NCBI GenBank assembly: GCA_964574975.1
Contig: CAZNSL010000002.1
Coordinates: forward strand, 1 to 29,976
Length of the DNA: 29,976 bases
Reading direction: 5' to 3'
Source of the DNA: an uncultured Alcaligenaceae bacterium
GTDB lineage: Bacteria > Planctomycetota > Planctomycetia > Gemmatales > Gemmataceae
Shown: positions 1,564-18,278 of the stretch, one piece after another
Layout of the letters: every line of letters begins with the position of its first letter
Position numbering within the stretch: position 1 is the first letter of the stretch
Program-made: the position numbers and the translations under genes
Notes under the pieces: generated by a model
Told to the model about the DNA's origin: nothing
The model's input: the letters and a program-made list of their open reading frames with translations, nothing else
Databases searched by the model: none

Positions 1564-2322
1564 TTACGGCTTGAACTCGATCTTGTGTTCGGTCGTGCCG
1601 TCGATCTTAATCTTCTGGCCCTTGGCTCCGGCGGCTCCGCCGTTGAACCCGTCTTCGTGCCAGACGACGAGCATGTACTCGCCCTTGGGAGCGTGCTTGA
1701 TCTCGAACTTCCCATCGGCATCGGTCACTGCGTAATACGGGTGGTCGAACACTCGCGCCCAACCCTTCATCCACTGGTGGATGTTGCAGGACAACGCGAT
1801 CTGCTGCTTGTCGGCCTTCAGCTTGATATCGTACTTGTTGCCTGGGGCAATGATCGTATTGCCGCCCGGGTTCTTCGCACGACTGCCGATGTAGCTGACG
1901 TTATGCGCGACTGGCGCACTGTTCTTGACGACCAGGATCTGCCCCTCCCGCACCGCGACGACTCGCGGTTCGAACGCGCACATCGGCTGGTCGATTTCGA
2001 CGGACGGCTTGTCCGGTTTGGCCAAACTTGCCGGCACCGGGGGTTTCGTGCCATCGACCTTCGTTAGCCAGACGATGACGTTCTTCAAACCCTTGTTGCC
2101 CTTGTTAATGTCGTAGATGTGAGCGAGCAAAGGACCTTTGGCGAGACAGTGTCCTTGGTCCTTGTCAACTTTCAGTGTGACGGGTGTTTTCGGCTCGCCG
2201 GCCCAAACCACCTGCCCTTTCAGCGACACGCCTTCGTCGGCCGCTCGGGCCGCCGGGCCGTCCGAAAACACTGCTGCAACGGCGAGTGTGCCGAGCATCA
2301 TTGCGATGGAGTGCTTACGCAT
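1564..2322 (-). CDS. Secreted cupredoxin-like (MauL/amicyanin-like) protein with a C-terminal carboxypeptidase-regulatory/prealbumin-like beta-sandwich
   Basis: N-terminal signal peptide (MRKHSIAMMLGTLAVAAVF...ARA), HNV followed by CNIHQWM, and C-terminal YAVTDADGKFEIKHAPKGEYMLVVWHE. It starts 4 bp after the octahaem stop. Confidence 0.75.
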   Translation of the reverse strand: MRKHSIAMMLGTLAVAAVFSDGPAARAADEGVSLKGQVVWAGEPKTPVTLKVDKDQGHCLAKGPLLAHIYDINKGNKGLKNVIVWLTKVDGTKPPVPASLAKPDKPSVEIDQPMCAFEPRVVAVREGQILVVKNSAPVAHNVSYIGSRAKNPGGNTIIAPGNKYDIKLKADKQQIALSCNIHQWMKGWARVFDHPYYAVTDADGKFEIKHAPKGEYMLVVWHEDGFNGGAAGAKGQKIKIDGTTEHKIEFKP

Positions 2323-2326
2323 CGGG

Positions 2327-5300
2327 TCACTTTCCTCCGGTAGCCCCCGCAGCCGCGGTGCGGGCCTTCAAGATCGGCCAGTCCGCTACGTCGGGGTAGA
2401 ACATCAAGAAATCGCGGCAGGCTTGAATCTGCTCCTTCGAGAAACCCTTCACCGAGGCGTGGAACTGTGGGTAGGGATTCTTCTCCGCATTCGCGGGGAA
2501 GTTGATCGGCATGACGGTCTTGAACGTCAAAAACCGCTGCGGGTTGGCGATCCAGCGTTCGGTCCAATCGGGCCGTAGTCGCTCGGCGGCGAGGCCCAAT
2601 TTCGGCCCCTGTTCCTGCTCCACAGGCATTGTACCTACCTGGTGGCACTTGACGCAGAGATTCGCGTCGGAAACCAACCGATAAGCGTCGAGGACGTACG
2701 CTTCCTTCTCTTCCCACTGCTTCTTGGCGGCAGCCACGAAGTTCGACTCGCCACCCTCCTTGATCTTGGCGAGGGCGACTTCTGCCGCCTTGAGCGAGTC
2801 CGCGATTGCAGCGTCCTCTTTCATGTCCTTCTTGGCCTGTTCGACGCGTGCCTGGGCCGCTTTCACGCGGGCCTCGGCCTGGGCGAGTTCCTCGCGGAAT
2901 TGCGACTGCCAGAACGGTTCCAACTCCTTGACCCTCGCGTCGAATACCTTATCGGCCTTGAGGCGTGCGACGTACTCGCGCGTCCGAGCTAACCGGTATC
3001 CTTCGTCGCGCTGGGCGACCTTCGGGTACGGTGCGGTCAGGCCGATACCAGGGTTCTCTCGTTTGTCCACCGCAGCGAAGTAGTCGACCAACGATTGAGT
3101 GTCCTCGTCGCTCAGGTTAAACTTGGGCATCCGAAGGACCGTGAGAGGTCGGATCGCGTGAGGTTGCTGGAGGAAACGGAAGAGCCACCCCGGCTGCGTT
3201 TTCTCGCCCTCGCGGACCAGGCTCGGCGGTGAAGCCGACTGGGCATAGCCACCGTTCGGATCGTAATAGGTCTTGTCGCGTTCCTGTAGGTACTTGGTCA
3301 ATAGGTTTGCGAAAACACCTCCTTGGGCCGGGCTATGGGCCGTCATCGCGGCCTCTGGTAGTTGGACGAAGGTGTACGCAGGCAAATCCCGTACCTCACC
3401 CTTCGCATTCGCGAAGCGCAGAGCGTGCGTCAGATTGCCGGAGATGAAGTTCTGACCTTCGAAACCCTCGGCGTCCTTGACGATTTCGATGGCGCTGAGT
3501 TTCGCCGTCACTGTACCTTTGCCGTCGATCTTTCCGCCCCACACGTTGTGTTCGGAGTAGCGGTGGTCGAGACCGTACTGGTCGGCACTCTCCTTGTAGT
3601 CGGTATACTTCTTCTCGAGCCACTCGGGTGCCTTGAAGAAAGTGACCTCGTCCGGCTTGCCGTCTTCCTTCTTGACGAACTTGAGGTCGGTCGTCGAGAA
3701 CTGGAATGTCTCCGATTGCAAGGTATGACATCCGGCACAGTTAAACTTTTCGAGAACCTTGCGTCCCTTGATCTCAGCGAGTTTGTCGCCCGACGGCCGG
3801 TTTACGAACTTGGCCGGCACCGGTTCGGCGACCAGTCCGAGGACGAACGTCATCACGGCCTCGCGGGCCTCGGCCTCCGCATTGCTGGCCCGTAGCGAAA
3901 ACGCCTCGTCCGACTCGCCCTCATTTCGTTGGATGCGGGCAAACTTGAACTGCGGCATCCTCGTTCGCTCAGTCCAATCCTTGATCCGGTTGTAGTCGAA
4001 GCTCCGTGGCTCCTGCAACTTCAGGTGCAGGAAGCCTTCGCGAGTCGCGTGGCCGTGGTGGACCTTTTCGTAGAAGAATCGCTCGTATGGCTGTTTGTCG
4101 CCCTTCATCGACCACGAAGTCATTTGTCGTTCGGCAGGCCTGCCTTCGTTGGACTTCTTTTCGGCGTCGGTCAAATTGCGCCGCACATCGACGATATTGA
4201 AGTGTTCCTCGATGAAGTGTTCGGCATCCTCGAACGCGAGACGATCGGGGTCTTTCTTGCCCCAATCGTTCAGGGCAACGCCGATCGGCTTCGGGTTCTC
4301 GAAACCTGGGACGTTATGGCAGGCGTAACATCCGAGGTTAGCAATCGCCTTCTTACCGACGAACATCTTGAGCTTATCGTCGTCGAGTCGGCCAGCGAGC
4401 AGGTGTTCGTCGGCGTCGATGGCCTTGGCCGCCAATTCCGCCTCCGAGAAGCCTTCTTCGCCTTCGATAATTCGTTCGAGTTCGCGGGCCGTCAGGTTCT
4501 TGAGGTAGACGCGGGCAAGGGCCTTCAGCGCGGTTCGGTCGGGCGTTTCGACCGTTGGCCCTTTCCAGTCGGACTTTTGCGAGATGAGCCACAGTGCGAT
4601 CTTATCCGCATCGTCTTCGCTCAATTGTACCGACGGCATGAGCGTCCGCGGGCTGTGGTTGTTGGGGTTGAGGAGCCACGACACCAGCCAAGCGCGGGCC
4701 GTCTCCGGCTTGCCGGCTTCGGTGCCGAGTTTGGCGGCCAGTCGGCTCAGATTCGGACCGTGGTTCGACTCGCTCACCATGGCCGGAATCGGCTTGTCGG
4801 CAAAGGTGCCTGCCTTGGCTGCTGCGTCGTGCTTGTGACAGGCCATGCACCCGCGCGTGTTGAACAGAAAATGGCCCTCGTCGACGACTGTGCCTTCCGC
4901 CTTACGGTCCGGAAGCTTCAGAGCATCCGCAGCCGGCAGAGCCTGAGCCCGCGCGGCGATTCGAGATTTGACTGCCACTAGTTCGCGTACGGCGTCCTTG
5001 CGATCCTTCTCCAATGTCTCGTTGCTAGCGATCCTGGCCGACAACTCGGTGACTTTGGCGTCATCCGCCTCCCGGGTCGCAGCGTCATCGTTCGCGTGCT
5101 TTTTGGCCTCGCCAAGTAACTCGCGGCTCTTGGTGAAGAGATAGTGGGCGATGGCCGTGATCTCGGTATCGGGGAAGCGCTTCTGCGCGTCGGGCAATGC
5201 TTCCGGAGAATTCGTCACCTGGAGGTAGTAGTGCGGCATCCTGGTATCCGGGCGGAACTCGCGTGGAGACTTGATCCAAGCTCTGGCCCATGCTTCGTTA

Positions 5301-6898
5301 GTTTTCTCCGCGATGCGCAGGAGACTCGGTCCGACTTTGCGTTGCGTGCCCGGCGGGTTGGCCGGATCGGCTAGTCGCTTCAACCGTTCTTCGGGGGTGA
5401 GTGCCTCGAGCGGCGGTTCTGGTTCGAGGCGAAGATCGGGGCCGATTTCACGTCCGGATTTCAGGCCGCTGATCTCATGGCAGCCGAAGCAGCCGAGTTC
5501 GCGCACGAGGTTGTAGCCTTTGACGAGTACCGGTGCTTCCACCTGGCTACCGCGGGTGAGGTCCTCGACCTGGTGGTGGCACTTCAGGCAGGTCGATTCG
5601 GCGAATCGCCTGGGCTGCATCCGGTAGTCCCAGAAGTGAATCGACTGCCAGTTGTGAAGTTTCTTCCACTCCCGTTCGGTCAGGACATCGTTGGGCGTGT
5701 GAGATGCATCGACGAAGGTCGTGGCGCTACCCTGGCCATCGTGGCACGAAGTACAGCCAAACTTCTCGGCCGAGTGGGGGCTGTTCGAATCGACGAAGAG
5801 GTCCAAACGGGGATGAGCGGTGAACTGCGCTATGCGCGAGTCAGTCAGCTTCACGGCTTCTGGGGCATATTGGCCATACGAGCCGTAACTGCCGTTTTCG
5901 ATCTGCCGTGTCAGGTCGGCGATCTCTTTTTCGTTGAGTCGTTCCTGTCCGCGATTGGCGCGGTCGCGATCGGTCAGCGCGATGATCGCGTCGGTCAACT
6001 TGCCTTTGAGGTACGGGTCGCTGAGCGGATCGTCGTTGAGGCGACGGACTGCGTCGGCCGTGTACGAGGACTTCTCCATTCCCAGATGGCAGGTGGTGCA
6101 ACGGTCGTAGCGGGTAACGTACTTGAAGCTGTAGTCGATCGGCAGTTCTTCGAGCGTGTACTGCTGAATGCGCGTCGGCGAGGCGAAACCGTCGATAATC
6201 GGCAGTGACCGGAACCAGTCGCCGAACCCCCACTCTTTTTGATTGGCCAGTTTGGCAAAGCGGTCGAAGTCTTCGGTCAGTAGCTTGAGGTGCGCCTCGG
6301 CGGCGTTAAGTTTCGCCTCAGCATCGGCCGGGCTGATCGACACGGCGTCGTATTTATCGGGCTTGACATCGTACGGTTTCAGGCGGGCCTCGTCGATTTC
6401 GAAAGCGAGCGATTCGATCTGCTTTTTCTTCTCGTCGAGTTCCTTGCGAATTACGTCTAACTCGGACAGATATCGCTTTGCAGTTGGTGTCTCGGGGCTG
6501 CGGTGTTCGACTTCGATGTTGTAGAAGCTCATCAACGAATCGTAGTCGGCCTTACGATTGGCCAACTGCGTTTCCTCTTTCGCCTTCTGCGTGACCCGTG
6601 CCCGTACGGACTCGTTGGCCGCGCCTTTCGCAGCGGCGAGGGTCGCCTTGGCCTTCGCAACCTCGGCCTCGGCTTCGAACACTTTGGCGCGGGCATCGGC
6701 ACTGGGGGCTGCCGCGAGCATGGTGCGTTTCGATAGCTCTTCCTCGACGGTTCGAAATACCTTCTGTTCTTTCTTGAAGGGCCGGTTGTAGTCCTCCCAG
6801 AACATCCAAAACGTGGTAACGAGCATGAAGACGCTCGACGCGGCAAAGACCACGTGGAGTACCTTCGTCTGGCGGTATGTCTGGTCGCTCGCGGCCAT
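2327..6898 (-). CDS. Giant membrane-anchored octahaem cytochrome c (1523 aa)
   Basis: Eight CxxCH motifs: CTTCH 6086-6100, CTSCH 5741-5755, CLKCH 5576-5590, CFGCH 5477-5491, CMACH 4835-4849, CYACH 4316-4330, CAGCH 3725-3739, CVKCH 2642-2656. One N-terminal hydrophobic helix (VLHVVFAASSVFMLVTTFWMFW). Confidence 0.93.
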   Translation of the reverse strand: MAASDQTYRQTKVLHVVFAASSVFMLVTTFWMFWEDYNRPFKKEQKVFRTVEEELSKRTMLAAAPSADARAKVFEAEAEVAKAKATLAAAKGAANESVRARVTQKAKEETQLANRKADYDSLMSFYNIEVEHRSPETPTAKRYLSELDVIRKELDEKKKQIESLAFEIDEARLKPYDVKPDKYDAVSISPADAEAKLNAAEAHLKLLTEDFDRFAKLANQKEWGFGDWFRSLPIIDGFASPTRIQQYTLEELPIDYSFKYVTRYDRCTTCHLGMEKSSYTADAVRRLNDDPLSDPYLKGKLTDAIIALTDRDRANRGQERLNEKEIADLTRQIENGSYGSYGQYAPEAVKLTDSRIAQFTAHPRLDLFVDSNSPHSAEKFGCTSCHDGQGSATTFVDASHTPNDVLTEREWKKLHNWQSIHFWDYRMQPRRFAESTCLKCHHQVEDLTRGSQVEAPVLVKGYNLVRELGCFGCHEISGLKSGREIGPDLRLEPEPPLEALTPEERLKRLADPANPPGTQRKVGPSLLRIAEKTNEAWARAWIKSPREFRPDTRMPHYYLQVTNSPEALPDAQKRFPDTEITAIAHYLFTKSRELLGEAKKHANDDAATREADDAKVTELSARIASNETLEKDRKDAVRELVAVKSRIAARAQALPAADALKLPDRKAEGTVVDEGHFLFNTRGCMACHKHDAAAKAGTFADKPIPAMVSESNHGPNLSRLAAKLGTEAGKPETARAWLVSWLLNPNNHSPRTLMPSVQLSEDDADKIALWLISQKSDWKGPTVETPDRTALKALARVYLKNLTARELERIIEGEEGFSEAELAAKAIDADEHLLAGRLDDDKLKMFVGKKAIANLGCYACHNVPGFENPKPIGVALNDWGKKDPDRLAFEDAEHFIEEHFNIVDVRRNLTDAEKKSNEGRPAERQMTSWSMKGDKQPYERFFYEKVHHGHATREGFLHLKLQEPRSFDYNRIKDWTERTRMPQFKFARIQRNEGESDEAFSLRASNAEAEAREAVMTFVLGLVAEPVPAKFVNRPSGDKLAEIKGRKVLEKFNCAGCHTLQSETFQFSTTDLKFVKKEDGKPDEVTFFKAPEWLEKKYTDYKESADQYGLDHRYSEHNVWGGKIDGKGTVTAKLSAIEIVKDAEGFEGQNFISGNLTHALRFANAKGEVRDLPAYTFVQLPEAAMTAHSPAQGGVFANLLTKYLQERDKTYYDPNGGYAQSASPPSLVREGEKTQPGWLFRFLQQPHAIRPLTVLRMPKFNLSDEDTQSLVDYFAAVDKRENPGIGLTAPYPKVAQRDEGYRLARTREYVARLKADKVFDARVKELEPFWQSQFREELAQAEARVKAAQARVEQAKKDMKEDAAIADSLKAAEVALAKIKEGGESNFVAAAKKQWEEKEAYVLDAYRLVSDANLCVKCHQVGTMPVEQEQGPKLGLAAERLRPDWTERWIANPQRFLTFKTVMPINFPANAEKNPYPQFHASVKGFSKEQIQACRDFLMFYPDVADWPILKARTAAAGATGGK

Positions 6899-6955: not shown

Positions 6956-8233
6956 TCAAAGGTTCGTGAAGTACTCGGGGATGTAGATGATGTACTTCAG
7001 GTTGATGGTCCAGCGCAGGACCATTTTGATAGGCAGGAGTGCCATGAACAACAGGTGGATGATCATGACGTAGTAGCGCAGGAATCCCATCTTCGCAGCC
7101 ATCGCGCGCATCACCGTGACCGCCAGGAGCGGTGGGACGACCGTGAAGTACGCGATGGTGAGCAAGATTCCTGGTAACTCGCGGATGAACCAGTGGAAAC
7201 TACGCGGTTGTCGGCCGAATAAGTTCAACCAGAACAGTTCCGACAGGTTGACGTTGTTGAGGGGTACGACCTTGTGCGGGTCCCAGTTCTCGAAAAATCC
7301 GAAGAAGTTCCAGTTCGGCCCGCGGAGGAACGTGCCGAGGACGATCAACACGACCCAGAGCACGAGGAAGCCGAACTCCCAAACCAGGATCGAGAACGGA
7401 CGCTCTCGGAAGGTGTAGTAACCGTTGCCTTTCTGGTTGTAGTCGATGTACGGCATCGCAATCAGGCCGGTGATGATCATCGTCGGTAGCACGACGCCGG
7501 CCATCCACGGATCGAAGTAGACGAGCATCTCCTGCAGGCCGAGGAAGTACCACGGGGCCTTCGATGGGTTGGGGGCTTTGGCGCTCGTCGCCGGTTGCTC
7601 CAATGGGGCTTTGAGTACGACCGACCAGACGATCAATACGGCTGTCGCAATCACCATGGCGATAAGTTCGGTATAGACGAGGTCCGGCCAGACGAGCACC
7701 TTCTCGTCGTCCTTCTCGAGCGGTGGCTTGCCCTGGGCAATCAGGTCGTCGTTGAGGACCATGCGACGGACGCCGAACCATGTGAAAAATCCGACGACGG
7801 CAAGCAGCATCACGATTGGGACGTTGTCCTCTTTCGCGATGATCGATCGGAAGTCGGAATTGGTCAACGACCAGCCGAATGCAAGGAGCGTCAAGTTCGT
7901 GAACGCAAACGCAACCGTCGGTGCCGTCAGCGTCTTGCGAAACGCAAACAGTAGTGCGAACGCGATGCAGGAACCAACGAAGTAAGTAACCGCGTTGGTC
8001 ACAGCATCGATGGCGTGCGTCACGCGCTCCGGGATGATCAGGTGTGAGCCTATGGGCAGGAAGTAGAGGACGGCGTGGGCAACGAATGCTCCACCAACGG
8101 CCGTCCACAAGAGCGCGAGCGGACGGTCGCGGTGCTTGACGTAGTACCACGCAACGCCGAAATTCAGTAGGGCGCAGAGGATGTAGAAGACGCCCAGCCC
8201 GTTTTGCACGCCTCGGGTCAGTTCCGTGTGCAT
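6956..8233 (-). CDS. Cytochrome b C-terminal / b6f subunit IV-like protein with extra membrane helices (425 aa)
   Basis: VWPDLVY...APLEQPAT...PNPSKAPWYFLGLQEML is the subunit IV core with a Qo-motif equivalent. About 10 hydrophobic segments. Start moved to the ATG at 8233 (MHTEL), which removes an overlap with the upstream cytochrome b. Confidence 0.88.
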   Translation of the reverse strand: MHTELTRGVQNGLGVFYILCALLNFGVAWYYVKHRDRPLALLWTAVGGAFVAHAVLYFLPIGSHLIIPERVTHAIDAVTNAVTYFVGSCIAFALLFAFRKTLTAPTVAFAFTNLTLLAFGWSLTNSDFRSIIAKEDNVPIVMLLAVVGFFTWFGVRRMVLNDDLIAQGKPPLEKDDEKVLVWPDLVYTELIAMVIATAVLIVWSVVLKAPLEQPATSAKAPNPSKAPWYFLGLQEMLVYFDPWMAGVVLPTMIITGLIAMPYIDYNQKGNGYYTFRERPFSILVWEFGFLVLWVVLIVLGTFLRGPNWNFFGFFENWDPHKVVPLNNVNLSELFWLNLFGRQPRSFHWFIRELPGILLTIAYFTVVPPLLAVTVMRAMAAKMGFLRYYVMIIHLLFMALLPIKMVLRWTINLKYIIYIPEYFTNL

Positions 8234-8279
8234 GGATTTCGGCCCTTCCGATCGGCCCGCCCGTGGCGGGAGAGTTTGC

Positions 8280-9053
8280 CTAGAGTGCGCCGCTGATCCC
8301 ACCGTCCTTGCGGACGCGCCAGAAGTGGACTGCGATTAATACGGCCACCACCAGCGGGAGTGCGACGCAGTGCAGTACGTAGAACCGTAGGAGAGTATCG
8401 CCCGAGACGAACCGCCCGCCGAGTAACAGGAACCGCGCGTCGGACCCAGAGTGTATTAGCGGCACGCCGTTGACTTGTAACAGGGCCGCCCCCGGTCCTT
8501 CGTGCCCGAGTCCAGGAGTCGCGCGGGCCATGTTACTACCAACGGTAATGGCCCAGATCGCGAGTTGGTCCCACGGCAACAGGTAGCCGGTGAAGCTCAA
8601 CAGCAACGTGAGTACGAGTAAGAGGACACCGACGGACCAGTTAAATTCGCGCGGCGGTTTATATGAGCCCGTCAAGAACACGCGGTACATGTGCAGCCAG
8701 ATGGCGATGACCATGGCGTGCGCCCCCCAGCGATGTTGCTCGCGGAGGATGCCGAGCGTGGTCACGTCGCGCAATGCGAGGATGTCGTTATAGGCGTGTT
8801 CGAGTGTCGGCCGGTAGTAGAACATTAAGAGGACGCCGGTGACAGTCTCCACCAGGAACAGGAAGAACGTCAGACCGCCCATGCACCAGGTGTACGAGAG
8901 CGCGATGCCACTGCGCCGCACCGAGACCGGATGCAGGTGCAGAAACACATTGGTGAGCATGACCACCACACGGTTGCGCCGATCGCGCGGCGCGGGGTGG
9001 CGGAAGACGCTCTTCCAGACCTGCGTGTTGCGGATGTATTCACCGACGGACAT
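8280..9053 (-). CDS. petB: Cytochrome b6-type (short, N-terminal) cytochrome b
   Basis: Four haem-b His in [15 protein letters not shown] and [11 protein letters not shown]...VHF. It also has TWCMGG (haem c_i Cys position), [14 protein letters not shown] and the C-terminal GISGAL typical of cytochrome b6. Confidence 0.93.
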
Positions 9054-9115: not shown

Positions 9116-9724
9116 CTAAATCTTAACGAACGAGTCGGGGTTGTCCCACTGGTTCAACTCTTCCTGGAACTTACGGCTCTTGTCCACGACGAGTTGCCCG
9201 TCGTCGCCTACGCTGATCGCCCAACGCTCCAGTGGTCGGGGAGCCGGGCCTTCGAAGTTGATGCCCGTGATGTAGAAGCCGCTACCGTGGCACGGGCACT
9301 TGAATTTCTGGTCGGCTTCCAGCCAGTTCGGCGTGCAACCGAGATGGGTGCAGGTCGTGCTCAGGGCGAAGATTTTGCCCTGGTAGCGGACGATCCAGAA
9401 ATTCTTGTCCTTGAACGTGTCGACGACTTTGCCTTCCTCGAAGTTCTTCGGATCGCCGACCTTGACGCGGTTCGGCGGTTCCGACAGCACGTTCGGAATC
9501 ATGAACCGGAGCGTGCCAAGCGTCATCAGGCCCATGGCTGCCCAAAAGGTCGCCCAGGCAACGGTCCAGGCACTGGTCACCCAGCGGACGAGGAAGAATC
9601 GACGGTCTTCGACTTTGGCCGGCGGCTTCGCTGGGGCGGGTTTGGCCGGCATCGGCGGTTTGGCGACAACCGGGGCTGCGGGCGGTGTTGGCATCGGGGC
9701 GGGCAGGGGAGCTGCATCGGACAT
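9116..9724 (-). CDS. Rieske [2Fe-2S] protein of a Rieske/cytochrome b complex (202 aa)
   Basis: CTHLGC and CPCHGS boxes, GPAPRPL, and the twin-arginine-like DRRFFL before a TM helix. Start moved to the ATG at 9724 (MSDAAP). Confidence 0.93.
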   Translation of the reverse strand: MSDAAPLPAPMPTPPAAPVVAKPPMPAKPAPAKPPAKVEDRRFFLVRWVTSAWTVAWATFWAAMGLMTLGTLRFMIPNVLSEPPNRVKVGDPKNFEEGKVVDTFKDKNFWIVRYQGKIFALSTTCTHLGCTPNWLEADQKFKCPCHGSGFYITGINFEGPAPRPLERWAISVGDDGQLVVDKSRKFQEELNQWDNPDSFVKI

Positions 9725-9811
9725 GCGACCAAACCTCGCAGTCGGGCCACGCGGACCCGTCGGTACTCCGTCGAAACGGCCGAAAGTACGGAGAAAAGTA
9801 TCTGTCAAAAC

Positions 9812-9827
9812 GGCAAAGGCAATGCCA
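9812..9827 (-). promoter_or_regulatory. Candidate sigma54 (-24/-12) promoter for the Rieske/cytb operon
   Basis: The minus strand reads TGGCATTGCCTTTGCC, with GG and GC spaced exactly as in the TGGCACG-N4-TTGCW consensus. It lies 87 bp upstream of the Rieske ATG in a 224-bp intergenic region. Confidence 0.5.
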
Positions 9828-9948
9828 ATGTGGCGCGTTTCGCCATTCCATGCACGGGTCACAGTGGAAGGACACGACTACGAAAATCCTTGCATGCAAC
9901 GAATACGACAACGCTTCCCGTCAACGGCAACAGGACTGACGGAGATTG

Positions 9949-15479: not shown

Positions 15480-18230
15480 CTAACGGTTCGATTGCAGGTA
15501 CGCGAACAAATCGCGCAACTCAGCGTTCGAGAAGGCGTCGAGCAGCTTTTCCGGCATGAGCGAATGGCGGGACGGTTCCAGCGATTCGAGCTTCGCCCGC
15601 GGCACCGTGGCCCGCTCTCCCTTCGAGTCGACGATCGTAACGACCTGTGGCGACTGCTCGGCAAGTAACCCCTGTAGCAAACGCCCATCGCGGGTCAGGG
15701 CATCGTAGGAGACGAACTCGGGCCGGACGATGGCGCTCGGATCGACGATCTGCGTCAGCAACCAGTCGCGGTTGCGGCGGTCGATCGTCGTCAGATCGGG
15801 ACCGACTTTGCCTCCGTCTCCGTGCAGCGTGTGGCAGTTGGCGCAGTGCTGCTTGAACAGTGCTATGCCGCGGGTCACGTCGCCAGTCCCTTCCCGGAGC
15901 CGGGCCGACAGGTGGCGAACGTGAGCCAGTTTCTCGCCGCTCGACTCCGGCGCGACGCGGCCCCAATGTTTGGCGATCAGCGTGTCGAGCGCATCGTGTC
16001 GATAGCCTGCGACGCGCCGAAGCACGTCCAGTGGCACGTCCTTGGCGGCGAGGCGGCCGGCGTCCACCGCGGCGAGTAACGTCTCTGCCGATTCCGGGCG
16101 AGAGGCGAGGACCGAGACCGCTTTGGCCCGCAACGACGAAGGGAGTTTTGGCACAAGGCTCGCGACGGTCTCGGCCGCGGCGCGATCGGGGACGCCGCCA
16201 ACGACCGACAGGGCCGCGGAGCGCACGGCGTCGGTCGCGCCGCCGCGGAGGACGTCGAGTGCGACCGGCAGAGCATCGGACGGGTTGATTTCGCCGAGTA
16301 ATTCGAGCAAGGCCGCCTGATCTGGCGAACGTACATCGGCGGCTGCCGTGCGAAGCTGTCGAAATGCTGCCCCGTCGCCGAGTCGCACTGCGATGCGAAG
16401 GGCCAGCATCGACGGGAGTTCGTCCTGAAGCGTGCCGAATGGCTTCGCAAGGGGCGGCGGAACATGGCTCAAGCGGCGGCCGTCGAGCGCCCGTTCCATG
16501 CCTCGGGCAAGCAGTTCGCGCTCGGCACGACCGGGGGCCAGTTCGAGTAGCCGCGCCGTCGTGGCAAAATCGTCCTCGGCGACGTAACGCCGGCCGAGAC
16601 GTTCCAAGAGCATTGTGCGGGAGATGGGCGAACGCCACATGTCGGGTTGTGCGATTAGTTCAGCGACGAGGTCTTTGCCGCGAACGGCGTGAGCCTCGAC
16701 GGCCCACCACGTCAGGAGCGGGATCATCGGGTCGCGCTCGTCGTCGGCGTGCGCGAGCAAGCCGCGGACGATTGCCAAGCCATCGAGTGCAGGCAGCCGT
16801 CGTGCGGTGCAGGCGAGTTGGTTCCGCACTATCGCGCTCGGTTCGGAACGCGCCAGTTCGGCGAGGTGCGCCGCTTGTCGCGGCGTCACATTCACCCCGT
16901 CGCCGAGCAGGCGAACAGCCCACGCTCGGACGAATTCGTCGGTGTGCGTCAGGCCGACATCGGGCGAATCGCCGTCGCGAACGCGCCGCCAGAACTCTAC
17001 GAGTGCGGTGGCGTATCGCGGTGTGACGGGGCCATGCGGTGCCTTGGGTGCGATGCGGTATATTCGGCCGGTCGTCTTGTCCCAGTTGTCCACCGGGTCG
17101 ACGTGGTTGGCCCGCTCGTCGTACCAGTCGGCAACGTACACAGCGCCATCCGAACCGACCGTCAGGTCCACGGGGCGGAAGTGCCGGTCGTCGGTGGTCA
17201 GAAGTTCGCCAGCCTGCCGCGACGAAAACGACGAACCGTGCGGCGTCAGGTCGTACCAGTAGACCGCGTTGGACAGGAGGTTGCAGGTGAGGTATCGCCC
17301 CTCAAAGTGCTTCGGAAACGTGCCGCCGCGGTAGACGATGCCGCCACAGGAGACGTGACCGCCCTTGAAGTTGGGGCAGGGGATGTGATCGAAGAAACCA
17401 TAAGTGTGCGGGTTGTGCAACGCCCCGTGCTTGCCCCAGTTTTTGACGTAGTAACCGCCCTGAACTACGTGCATGCACGCGACGCCGCCGAAATTCGTCC
17501 CGGCAATGAGACGGGCGTTACGGTCGAAGTCGAGGCCCCAGATGTTGCCGCCACCCTCGGCAAACAACTCGAAACGGTCGGTCGGCGGGTGGTAGCGCCA
17601 GACGCCCTGTTGAAACTCGATGCCGCGGACGTTGGCAGTGACCGTACTGCCCTGCGCGCCGTAGAGCCAGCCGTCCGGCCCCCACTGGAGTGAGTTCGCG
17701 TAGGCATGGGAGTCCTCCGTGCCGAACCCACTGAGTACGACTTTCGGGTCGCCATCCGGTACGTCGTCGCCGTCGCGGTCTTCGTAGAACAACAAATAGG
17801 GTGGTTGGGCGACGTACACGCCACCGCCACCGACACAGAACCCCGTCGCTAGATTCAACCCGGTCACGAAGTCCTTGGATTTCCGAAACCGGCCGGTATC
17901 GTCGCGGTCGTAGAGGATGGTAAGCTTGTCGGCACCCTTCGGCCCCTTCGGGGGCGGTTCTGGTACCCGGTCGTACTTGGTTCGCAGGAATTGATCGACG
18001 GCGACTGGCGTCAGTCCAGCCGGGTTCGGGTATTGGAGGTATTGCAATACCCACAGTCGCCCGCGGTCGTCGAACGAGATTGAAACCGGCTGCCGGACGA
18101 GCGGCTCCGCGGCGGCGATCCGCACCTCGAAGCCATCGGGGACGCGGAAATGCTTGAGCGCCTTGACCGGCGGAAGGCCGGCTGCGCGAGCGACGCCCGT
18201 CGCCATTAGCACCAATAACGCGATGCGCAT
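15480..18230 (-). CDS. PVC-type haem-binding putative membrane-bound dehydrogenase (beta-propeller + HEAT-like region + C-terminal CxxCH domain)
   Basis: Signal peptide, then the FRVPDGFEV...AAEP...FDDRGRLWV and WGPDGWLY propeller repeats, and FRPVD. The C-terminus has CANCH (15831-15845), VGPDL, DPSAIV and SLMPE, typical of the Pirellula/Verrucomicrobium haem-binding family. Confidence 0.88.
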   Translation of the reverse strand: MRIALLVLMATGVARAAGLPPVKALKHFRVPDGFEVRIAAAEPLVRQPVSISFDDRGRLWVLQYLQYPNPAGLTPVAVDQFLRTKYDRVPEPPPKGPKGADKLTILYDRDDTGRFRKSKDFVTGLNLATGFCVGGGGVYVAQPPYLLFYEDRDGDDVPDGDPKVVLSGFGTEDSHAYANSLQWGPDGWLYGAQGSTVTANVRGIEFQQGVWRYHPPTDRFELFAEGGGNIWGLDFDRNARLIAGTNFGGVACMHVVQGGYYVKNWGKHGALHNPHTYGFFDHIPCPNFKGGHVSCGGIVYRGGTFPKHFEGRYLTCNLLSNAVYWYDLTPHGSSFSSRQAGELLTTDDRHFRPVDLTVGSDGAVYVADWYDERANHVDPVDNWDKTTGRIYRIAPKAPHGPVTPRYATALVEFWRRVRDGDSPDVGLTHTDEFVRAWAVRLLGDGVNVTPRQAAHLAELARSEPSAIVRNQLACTARRLPALDGLAIVRGLLAHADDERDPMIPLLTWWAVEAHAVRGKDLVAELIAQPDMWRSPISRTMLLERLGRRYVAEDDFATTARLLELAPGRAERELLARGMERALDGRRLSHVPPPLAKPFGTLQDELPSMLALRIAVRLGDGAAFRQLRTAAADVRSPDQAALLELLGEINPSDALPVALDVLRGGATDAVRSAALSVVGGVPDRAAAETVASLVPKLPSSLRAKAVSVLASRPESAETLLAAVDAGRLAAKDVPLDVLRRVAGYRHDALDTLIAKHWGRVAPESSGEKLAHVRHLSARLREGTGDVTRGIALFKQHCANCHTLHGDGGKVGPDLTTIDRRNRDWLLTQIVDPSAIVRPEFVSYDALTRDGRLLQGLLAEQSPQVVTIVDSKGERATVPRAKLESLEPSRHSLMPEKLLDAFSNAELRDLFAYLQSNR

Positions 18231-18278
18231 CGTGCCCCTCACTCGCCGCGCATTGGTCGTTCGACGCTATCACTCGGA

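Follow-up and report, generated by a model that had tools for sequence, protein, structure and literature searches.

A membrane-anchored octahaem cytochrome c as the probable counterpart of cytochrome c1/f in a planctomycete Rieske/cytochrome b complex

Rieske/cytochrome b complexes belong to the most thoroughly studied energy converters, yet to our knowledge their output side is known only in one-haem (cytochromes c1 and f) and two-haem versions. In actinobacterial QcrC and the dihaem cytochromes c of Epsilonproteobacteria and Aquificae, duplicated class-I domains with His/Met-ligated haems replace cytochrome c1 and form a wire towards an aa3 oxidase. In the anammox Rieske/b complexes of Kuenenia, cytochrome f is replaced by a cytochrome with six or eight haems, and Kustd1485 is described as having long alpha-helices and haems grouped in two and three (PMC12954380). 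The window analysed here is a stretch of 29,976 nucleotides (assembly GCA_964574975.1, contig CAZNSL010000002.1, positions 1 to 29,976). An open reading frame (ORF) at window positions 2327-6898 on the minus strand encodes a protein of 1523 residues with eight CxxCH haem-attachment motifs, referred to below as the octahaem cytochrome. It is very likely the cytochrome c subunit of a b6-type Rieske/cytochrome b quinol oxidase from a Gemmataceae-like planctomycete, in which it would replace cytochrome c1 or f. As judged from its sequence, it is an analogue of these two proteins by predicted role and a member of neither family. Our literature search found no description of such an octahaem protein in non-anammox planctomycetes.

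The octahaem gene is the fourth of five minus-strand genes, which encode, in order, a Rieske iron-sulfur subunit (9116..9862), a cytochrome b6 (8280..9053), a subunit IV (6956..8302), the octahaem cytochrome and a cupredoxin (1564..2322). No homologue of cytochrome c1 or f is present in the operon, and the corresponding Pfam models (PF02167 and PF01333, respectively) were absent at E <= 1 from scans of the whole octahaem protein and of seven segments of it. No cytochrome b other than that of the operon was found in the genome. Several haem-copper oxidases are encoded there. A scan of named genomes returned at least 584 relatives of the octahaem cytochrome, and 80 loci were kept for neighbourhood counts. 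These come from Gemmataceae, Planctomycetaceae, Pirellulales, Isosphaeraceae, Thermoguttaceae, Schlesneria and Singulisphaera. Of the 80 loci, 63 have a Rieske homologue upstream and 69 a cupredoxin homologue downstream, and the operons of Schlesneria and Singulisphaera agree with the gene order of the window. The operon of Schlesneria sp. T3-172 runs on into genes for a dihaem cytochrome c, COX2 and COX1; a COX1 gene is found downstream on the same strand in 26 of the 80 loci, where the operon continues into an aa3-type oxidase.

Like cytochromes c1 and f, the octahaem cytochrome occupies the same operon slot, is the presumed acceptor of electrons from the Rieske protein and has a predicted membrane anchor that places it on the P side. 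It differs from both in having its anchor at the N-terminus rather than the C-terminus, in carrying eight haems instead of one and in showing no sequence match to either. The likeness to QcrC and the dihaem cytochromes c is a general class-I one, as these proteins have two haems and nothing corresponding to the bis-His cluster, stalk or large insertions described below. The anammox proteins Kustd1485 and Kuste4573 are likened to the octahaem cytochrome by description: they too are membrane-anchored multihaem proteins encoded in a b6-type operon with split b6 and subunit IV genes. The anammox operons, however, also encode an NAD(P) oxidoreductase, and one of them an HAO-like octahaem enzyme, whereas the operon in the window has neither and ends with a cupredoxin gene. 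The tetrahaem subunit of the purple-bacterial reaction centre and ActA/ActE of alternative complex III are fixed wires that mix bis-His and His/Met haems. Their folds and complexes are unrelated, and they are analogues of the octahaem cytochrome in the way they work.

The sequence-only reading of the window had placed CxxCH motifs at residues 267, 382, 437, 470, 684, 857, 1054 and 1415, and all eight are found there; the range 2327-6100 that it gave for the protein runs from the first CxxCH codon through the stop codon. Sixteen of the 17 cysteines sit in these motifs, and the protein contains no variant CxxC motif. From amino acid composition, 0.005 CxxCH motifs would be expected, and 87 of 20,000 shuffled sequences gave one motif while none gave more than one. 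The protein is probably a membrane-anchored cytochrome c with eight haems, three of them predicted to be bis-His-ligated and five His/Met-ligated in class-I domains. All features of the gene are given in window positions and lie on the minus strand. The anchor is predicted at residues 13-33 (6800..6862), the sole strong hydrophobic segment at the N-terminus, and two of its residues, M25 and M32, are conserved among the 120 close homologues introduced below. Attachment of c-type haem requires the haem domains to be on the periplasmic side. We considered residues 1014-1032 as a second transmembrane helix and rejected this, since haems 7 and 8 would then be cytoplasmic and the segment is part of a buried helix in the AlphaFold2 (AF2) model. 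The anchor is followed by a charged helical stalk (residues 35-235; 6194..6796) composed of 37% Lys, Arg, Glu and Asp and 16% Ala, for which a Pfam scan gave no family above noise.

The octahaem cytochrome of the window is typical of its family, which is very large. More than 1200 full-length relatives, about 1450-1650 residues long, emerged from a word-indexed search, and 120 of them were listed as the close set; those with names are labelled Gemmataceae "c-type cytochrome" or "mono/diheme cytochrome c family protein". Exactly eight CxxCH motifs are present in 119 of these 120 close homologues. An exhaustive profile search with residues 232-665 against cluster representatives at 50% identity matched 2644 representatives at E <= 1e-3 and 751 at E <= 1e-30. 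The eight motifs occur with the same spacing pattern in 92 of 99 full-length representatives. Among 212 octahaem members, the spacing from haem 2 to haem 3 is 54-70 residues and that from haem 3 to haem 4 is 28-49. The module carrying the first three haems is present in 107 of 301 sampled Planctomycetota genomes, and in 77 of the 190 that are near-complete. Compact homologues of about 940 residues and around 30% identity have all eight motifs in the same order, with no stalk and with shorter inserts; in these, haem 1 lies only about 40-60 residues past the anchor. In Singulisphaera sp. GP187 (L084:7332-10984) the octahaem frame is split into a protein of 1018 residues with seven CxxCH motifs and an overlapping ORF of 215 residues with a FixO-like piece, which suggests a frameshift or a sequencing error.

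The last five motifs begin five class-I cytochrome c domains. Domain 4 (residues 456-610; 5069..5533) contains CFGCH at 470 and the candidate axial ligand M554, and is joined by a helical linker (residues 611-664; 4907..5068), modelled by AF2 as helices with a predicted local distance difference test score (pLDDT) of 90-97, to domain 5 (residues 665-800; 4499..4906; CMACH at 684, M754). Domain 6 (residues 840-1030; 3809..4381; CYACH at 857, M981) has an insert of about 80 residues, and domain 7 (residues 1036-1300; 2999..3793; CAGCH at 1054, M1257) has a beta-rich insert of about 130 residues. A long helical hairpin (residues 1301-1395; 2714..2998), helical in the AF2 model and with 38% charged residues, then leads to domain 8 (residues 1396-1523; 2330..2713; CVKCH at 1415, M1463). 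The two hairpin helices correspond to residues 660-698 and 704-750 of the model, with pLDDT 90-97. The sequence-only reading had described each of these five motifs as followed by a repeated signature ending in Met-Pro. The methionines M554, M754, M981, M1257 and M1463 do lie within the quoted strings, each in a Met-Pro pair. The signature itself needs correction in domain 6, where "GVAL" lies about 10 residues past CxxCH and not just before the methionine; it and "GPDL" in domain 4 (around residue 486) match the position of "APEL" in NorC-type proteins. The distances from CxxCH to the methionine are 84, 70, 124, 203 and 48 residues in domains 4 to 8, respectively, so the big insertions in domains 6 and 7 are real.

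Conservation points to these methionines as axial ligands. All five are 99-100% conserved in the 120 close homologues, and for M554 and M754 conservation is 100% among 116 cluster representatives with identities of 32-48%. Of the 212 octahaem members, all have Met-Pro after haems 4, 5 and 7, 208 have it after haem 6 and 197 after haem 8; the compact homologues keep the methionine of domain 6 as Met-Gly. In profile comparisons with Protein Data Bank (PDB) sequences, M554 aligns to the methionine of "...ESKMPSY" (the KMP motif) in CcoO (3mk7_B, E 3e-6), M754 to that of "PIPMPPN" in Pseudomonas cytochrome c551, and M1257 to that of "RAMPQF" in NorC (3o0r_C), which both halves of domain 7 match. 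We take the aligned methionines of CcoO, c551 and NorC to be their axial ligands. The profile of domain 8 finds SoxX and, at E 8e-6, the cytochrome c domain of 2l4d. His/Met ligation of haems 4-8 is thus well supported as a prediction from alignment and conservation.

The Pfam class-I model PF00034 scores 80.6 bits on the whole protein (cut-off 21.3). When the domains are scanned in isolation, domains 4 and 5 score above the cut-off (24.8 and 33.1 bits) and domains 7 and 8 just under it (20.6 and 19.4 bits). Domain 8 reaches 57.8 bits against the NCBIfam model of SoxX, under the cut-off of 61. Isolated domain 4 scores 29.4 bits with FixO, and the CcoO/FixO family PF02433 scores 30.2 bits on the whole protein, compared with a cut-off of 29.6, over profile positions 100-197 of 219 only. 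We rejected membership of the CcoO/FixO family, as the profile match is partial and the operon has no gene for cbb3 subunit I; the likeness is one of domains. CcoO (FixO), NorC and SoxX-type proteins share with the octahaem domains the succession CxxCH ... GPxL ... W..W/L..P ... MP, with the methionine at the same axial position. These are, however, single-haem subunits of cbb3 oxidase, nitric oxide reductase and the Sox system, whereas the octahaem cytochrome fuses five such domains and lacks the partner subunits.

In AF2 models, all five domains have an N-terminal helix, the CxxCH motif, a helix with W..W/L..P, the Met loop and a C-terminal helix. The model of residues 660-1523 (864 residues) has a pLDDT of 82.7 and a predicted template modelling score of 0.80, and suggests that domains 5-8 pack into one body. 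Modelled domain 5 superposes on SoxX (2c1d_B) with Z 9.3 and a root-mean-square deviation of 2.0 over 94 residues, and gives Z 7.6 to NorC, 7.5 to c551 and 7.2 to CcoO. Foldseek and VIA-align matches to the 864-residue model were mostly to domain 5, together with helical-hairpin look-alikes. Taken together, the Pfam matches, the position of the Met-Pro methionine at the known axial site and the fold of domain 5 uphold the earlier assignment of the five C-terminal units to class I, and within this class the domains belong to the part typified by CcoO, NorC and SoxX. The insert of domain 7 (window 3200-3725, minus strand; residues ~1059-1189) is modelled as beta strands with pLDDT of about 70-93. 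It gave no family match, and its sole weak structural look-alike is PafBC (Z ~6).

The trihaem module (residues 240-455; 5534..6181) carries the CxxCH motifs at 267, 382 and 437. As had been noted, it lacks the class-I signature and has spare histidines near its haems. Among the four spare histidines singled out earlier, H362 (in AHPR), H375 (SPHS) and H400 (ASHT) are invariant in the 116 representatives save for gaps in fragments, and H421 (IHF) falls out, being kept in 82%; M427 is kept in 93%. Exactly three invariant spare histidines suit three bis-His haems, and haems 1-3 are probably ligated through H362, H375 and H400. A variable helical insert at residues ~280-355, between haem 1 and H362, is longer in other lineages. 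The CxxCH motif of haem 4 lies only 33 residues past that of haem 3. No Pfam family rises above noise for the trihaem module; models of c7, c3 and MtrC-type multihaem proteins match weakly over residues 373-477, spanning haems 2-4. On the basis of this spacing and of the span of these matches, haem 4 is probably part of the N-terminal cluster in space, which would then consist of four haems rather than three. The c7/c3-type families compared were PF14522 and PF14537. PF14522 reaches 34.2 bits over the whole protein against a cut-off of 24.8, with no single stretch above the cut-off and 18.9 bits on residues 240-460. The trihaem profile gave only noise against the PDB, with c7 at E 7.5, and a Foldseek search with the AF2 model of residues 232-665 returned nothing meaningful.

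The sequence-only reading had proposed that the class-I domains arose by internal duplication, and the five domains do prove to be each other's best non-self matches genome-wide. Hidden Markov models (HMMs) of the domains were searched against all six-frame ORFs of the same genome (78% complete), 267 of which contain CxxCH. The non-self matches of the domain 4 HMM are solely domains 7, 8, 6 and 5, and the top other cytochrome match of the HMMs of domains 5, 6 and 7 is domain 4; the scores are low throughout. That the domains are nearer to each other than to any other cytochrome of the genome fits duplication. In hhalign comparisons, domains 4, 5 and 8 are mutually linked at 96-98% probability and 27-30% identity (96.9% for domain 8 against domain 4). 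Domains 6 and 7 align in two pieces that flank their insertions, with N-terminal halves at 71-98% (97.7% for the N-terminal half of domain 6 against domain 4), and the C-terminal halves of domains 4, 5, 7 and 8 match mutually at 62-97%. Since hundreds of clusters at 50% identity, the compact forms of about 940 residues among them, share one and the same eight-haem layout, the sequences indicate that the duplication is ancient and not peculiar to this gene.

We propose the following path for the electrons. The N-terminal helix would anchor the octahaem cytochrome in the cytoplasmic membrane, with the remainder in the periplasm carrying eight covalently bound, six-coordinate haems. These would be arranged as a compact trihaem cluster, then the CcoO-like His/Met domain with haem 4, then the packed His/Met domains with haems 5-8. 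(Mena)quinol would be oxidised at Qo, and the Rieske cluster would reduce one of the haems of the octahaem cytochrome. The electron would then travel along the haem chain and exit to the co-encoded blue-copper protein, to cytochrome c oxidases or to both. In this way the octahaem cytochrome, as a fixed wire within one molecule, would do the work of the single c1/f haem and a soluble carrier.

Several observations weigh against this reading or parts of it. The axial ligands are inferred from alignment and conservation. Equally inferred are a physical place for the octahaem cytochrome in the complex, bound to the b6/subunit IV core, the haem potentials, and the sequence and direction of electron transfer along the chain. 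M427 and H421 are alternative ligand candidates for haems 1-3, and in the AF2 model of residues 232-665 the pLDDT is below 50 over all three N-terminal haem sites. Isolated domain 6 gave no match in the Pfam scan, and its C-terminal half has no significant hhalign match, with a weak one to domain 7 alone. The genome is a metagenome-assembled genome (MAG) of 78% completeness, so the count of a single cytochrome b is provisional. The window and other Gemmataceae loci have no adjacent oxidase genes, so context does not fix the acceptor. A complex prediction with the Rieske soluble domain and residues 232-631 with four haems gave no answer (score 0.00) and bears neither way.

Where electrons enter the octahaem cytochrome can be read in more than one way. 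The earlier proposal was that the bis-His trihaem module is a low-potential entry; it would sit by the Rieske head, and electrons would run from the N- to the C-terminus through domains 4-8 of rising potential. Canonical acceptors such as c1 and QcrC are His/Met haems, and bis-His haems usually lie far below the Rieske cluster in potential, so that entry there would be uphill; the latter is a mild counterargument. The trihaem module is nevertheless the part of the protein nearest the anchor in sequence, at a distance of about 40-60 residues in the compact homologues, although sequence order need not be spatial order. Haems 2-4 are tightly spaced across the 212 proteins, and the anammox complexes, as modelled with AlphaFold3, have their two most membrane-proximal c haems in a common position (PMC12954380). 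On balance, we regard entry through the trihaem module as a tentative possibility.

Somewhat less probable, in our view, is an arrangement in which the eight haems form a rigid, continuous wire that passes electrons directly to the blue-copper protein or the oxidases with no diffusible cytochrome c, and in which the bis-His cluster is a low-potential side branch or buffer. Such a cluster could, for example, link two monomers or serve an alternative acceptor. If true, this would be an output mode of complex III not seen in bc1 or b6f.

It is decidedly unlikely that the octahaem cytochrome is a co-transcribed but separate tethered carrier, similar to cytochrome cy or c552, that moves in the periplasm among complex III, the cupredoxin and the oxidases. 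In that case the operon would be left without a cytochrome that could take electrons from the Rieske protein, the gene order is fixed across the phylum, and the multihaem counterparts of anammox bacteria co-migrate with their complexes (PMC12954380). The long, flexible-looking stalk (35-235) and N-terminal anchor do resemble those of tethered carriers, but the compact homologues have no stalk; that the oxidase genes are not adjacent in Gemmataceae also speaks for a carrier. Less likely still is that one or more haems are catalytic or ligand-switching, making the octahaem cytochrome a peroxidase, an N-oxide enzyme or a sulfur enzyme: domain 8 does come near the SoxX cut-off, domain 7 does resemble NorC and the large insertions of domains 6 and 7 have no assigned function, but this likeness is one that class-I folds share in general, the operon has no SoxA or NorB partner genes, and neither CxxCK nor a distal signature of the Cys/Lys/Tyr type is present. 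A conserved candidate for the sixth ligand exists at each haem, which favours a role in electron transfer over a catalytic one.

If the octahaem cytochrome is the c1/f counterpart that we propose, the present analysis suggests that the aerobic chain of a major phylum, abundant in the environment, passes through an eight-haem subunit that is not known to have been purified. The octahaem family is not known to have been studied at the bench. The present analysis contributes the residue-level map of domains and ligands and the test of duplication. The domain map, the named ligand candidates and the lineage-specific insertions provide residues to mutate and spectroscopic predictions, and the map offers a frame for the unexplained multihaem subunits of the anammox complexes.

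The remaining genes of the operon are those of a b6-type complex. The first encodes the Rieske iron-sulfur subunit, which matches Pfam PF00355 and has CTHLGC and CPCHGS boxes. As listed, its ORF has a long Pro/Ala/Lys-rich N-terminal extension, then an RRFF twin-arginine-like motif and an anchor; the start codon is uncertain. The second encodes a cytochrome b6 of the four-helix type (PF00033, 135 bits) with the sequence "WCMGG". The CxGG motif binds haem ci/cn in b6f and Firmicute complexes, and the core of the planctomycete complex probably has three haems per b6, as read from this motif. The third gene encodes an enlarged subunit IV of 448 residues, in which PF00032 matches residues 238-326 and the APWY Qo motif is found in "KAPWYF". 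About five extra hydrophobic segments precede the PetD-like core, and two to three follow it. Its homologues are likewise enlarged (461 residues in Schlesneria, 529 in Singulisphaera). The APWY clade of split cytochromes b includes planctomycetes (Kao and Hunte, PMC4122944).

The last gene encodes a secreted blue-copper-like protein (Pfam Copper-bind, 21.5 bits) that consists of a cupredoxin and a CarboxypepD_reg-like beta-sandwich. Among 64 operon-linked homologues, 59-64 retain each of the candidate type-1 copper ligands H140, C179, H182 and M185. The pair C59/C115 is conserved across the same 64 proteins. Substitutions at ligand positions also occur in the homologues, with a ligand His changed to Gln in five and the Met to Glu in five.

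Elsewhere in the window, positions 15480-18242 on the minus strand encode a protein of 920 residues with DUF7133, HEAT repeats and a C-terminal class-I cytochrome c, which is unrelated to the operon. Proteins of this architecture are a typical planctomycete haem-binding "dehydrogenase-like" type. Finally, eight MAG loci labelled "uncultured Alcaligenaceae" or "Candidatus Kuenenia" (L020, L030, L033, L040, L054, L060, L072 and L092) carry the planctomycete operon. Those labelled "Candidatus Kuenenia" were considered as anammox homologues and rejected, given their 58% GC content and oxidase-linked operon, and that label appears wrong. L040 has a GC content of 58%. In L040, L054, L060, L072 and L092 the operon is accompanied by the cupredoxin gene, by a neighbouring gene for an aa3 oxidase, or by both. 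The taxonomic labels of all eight loci look wrong.

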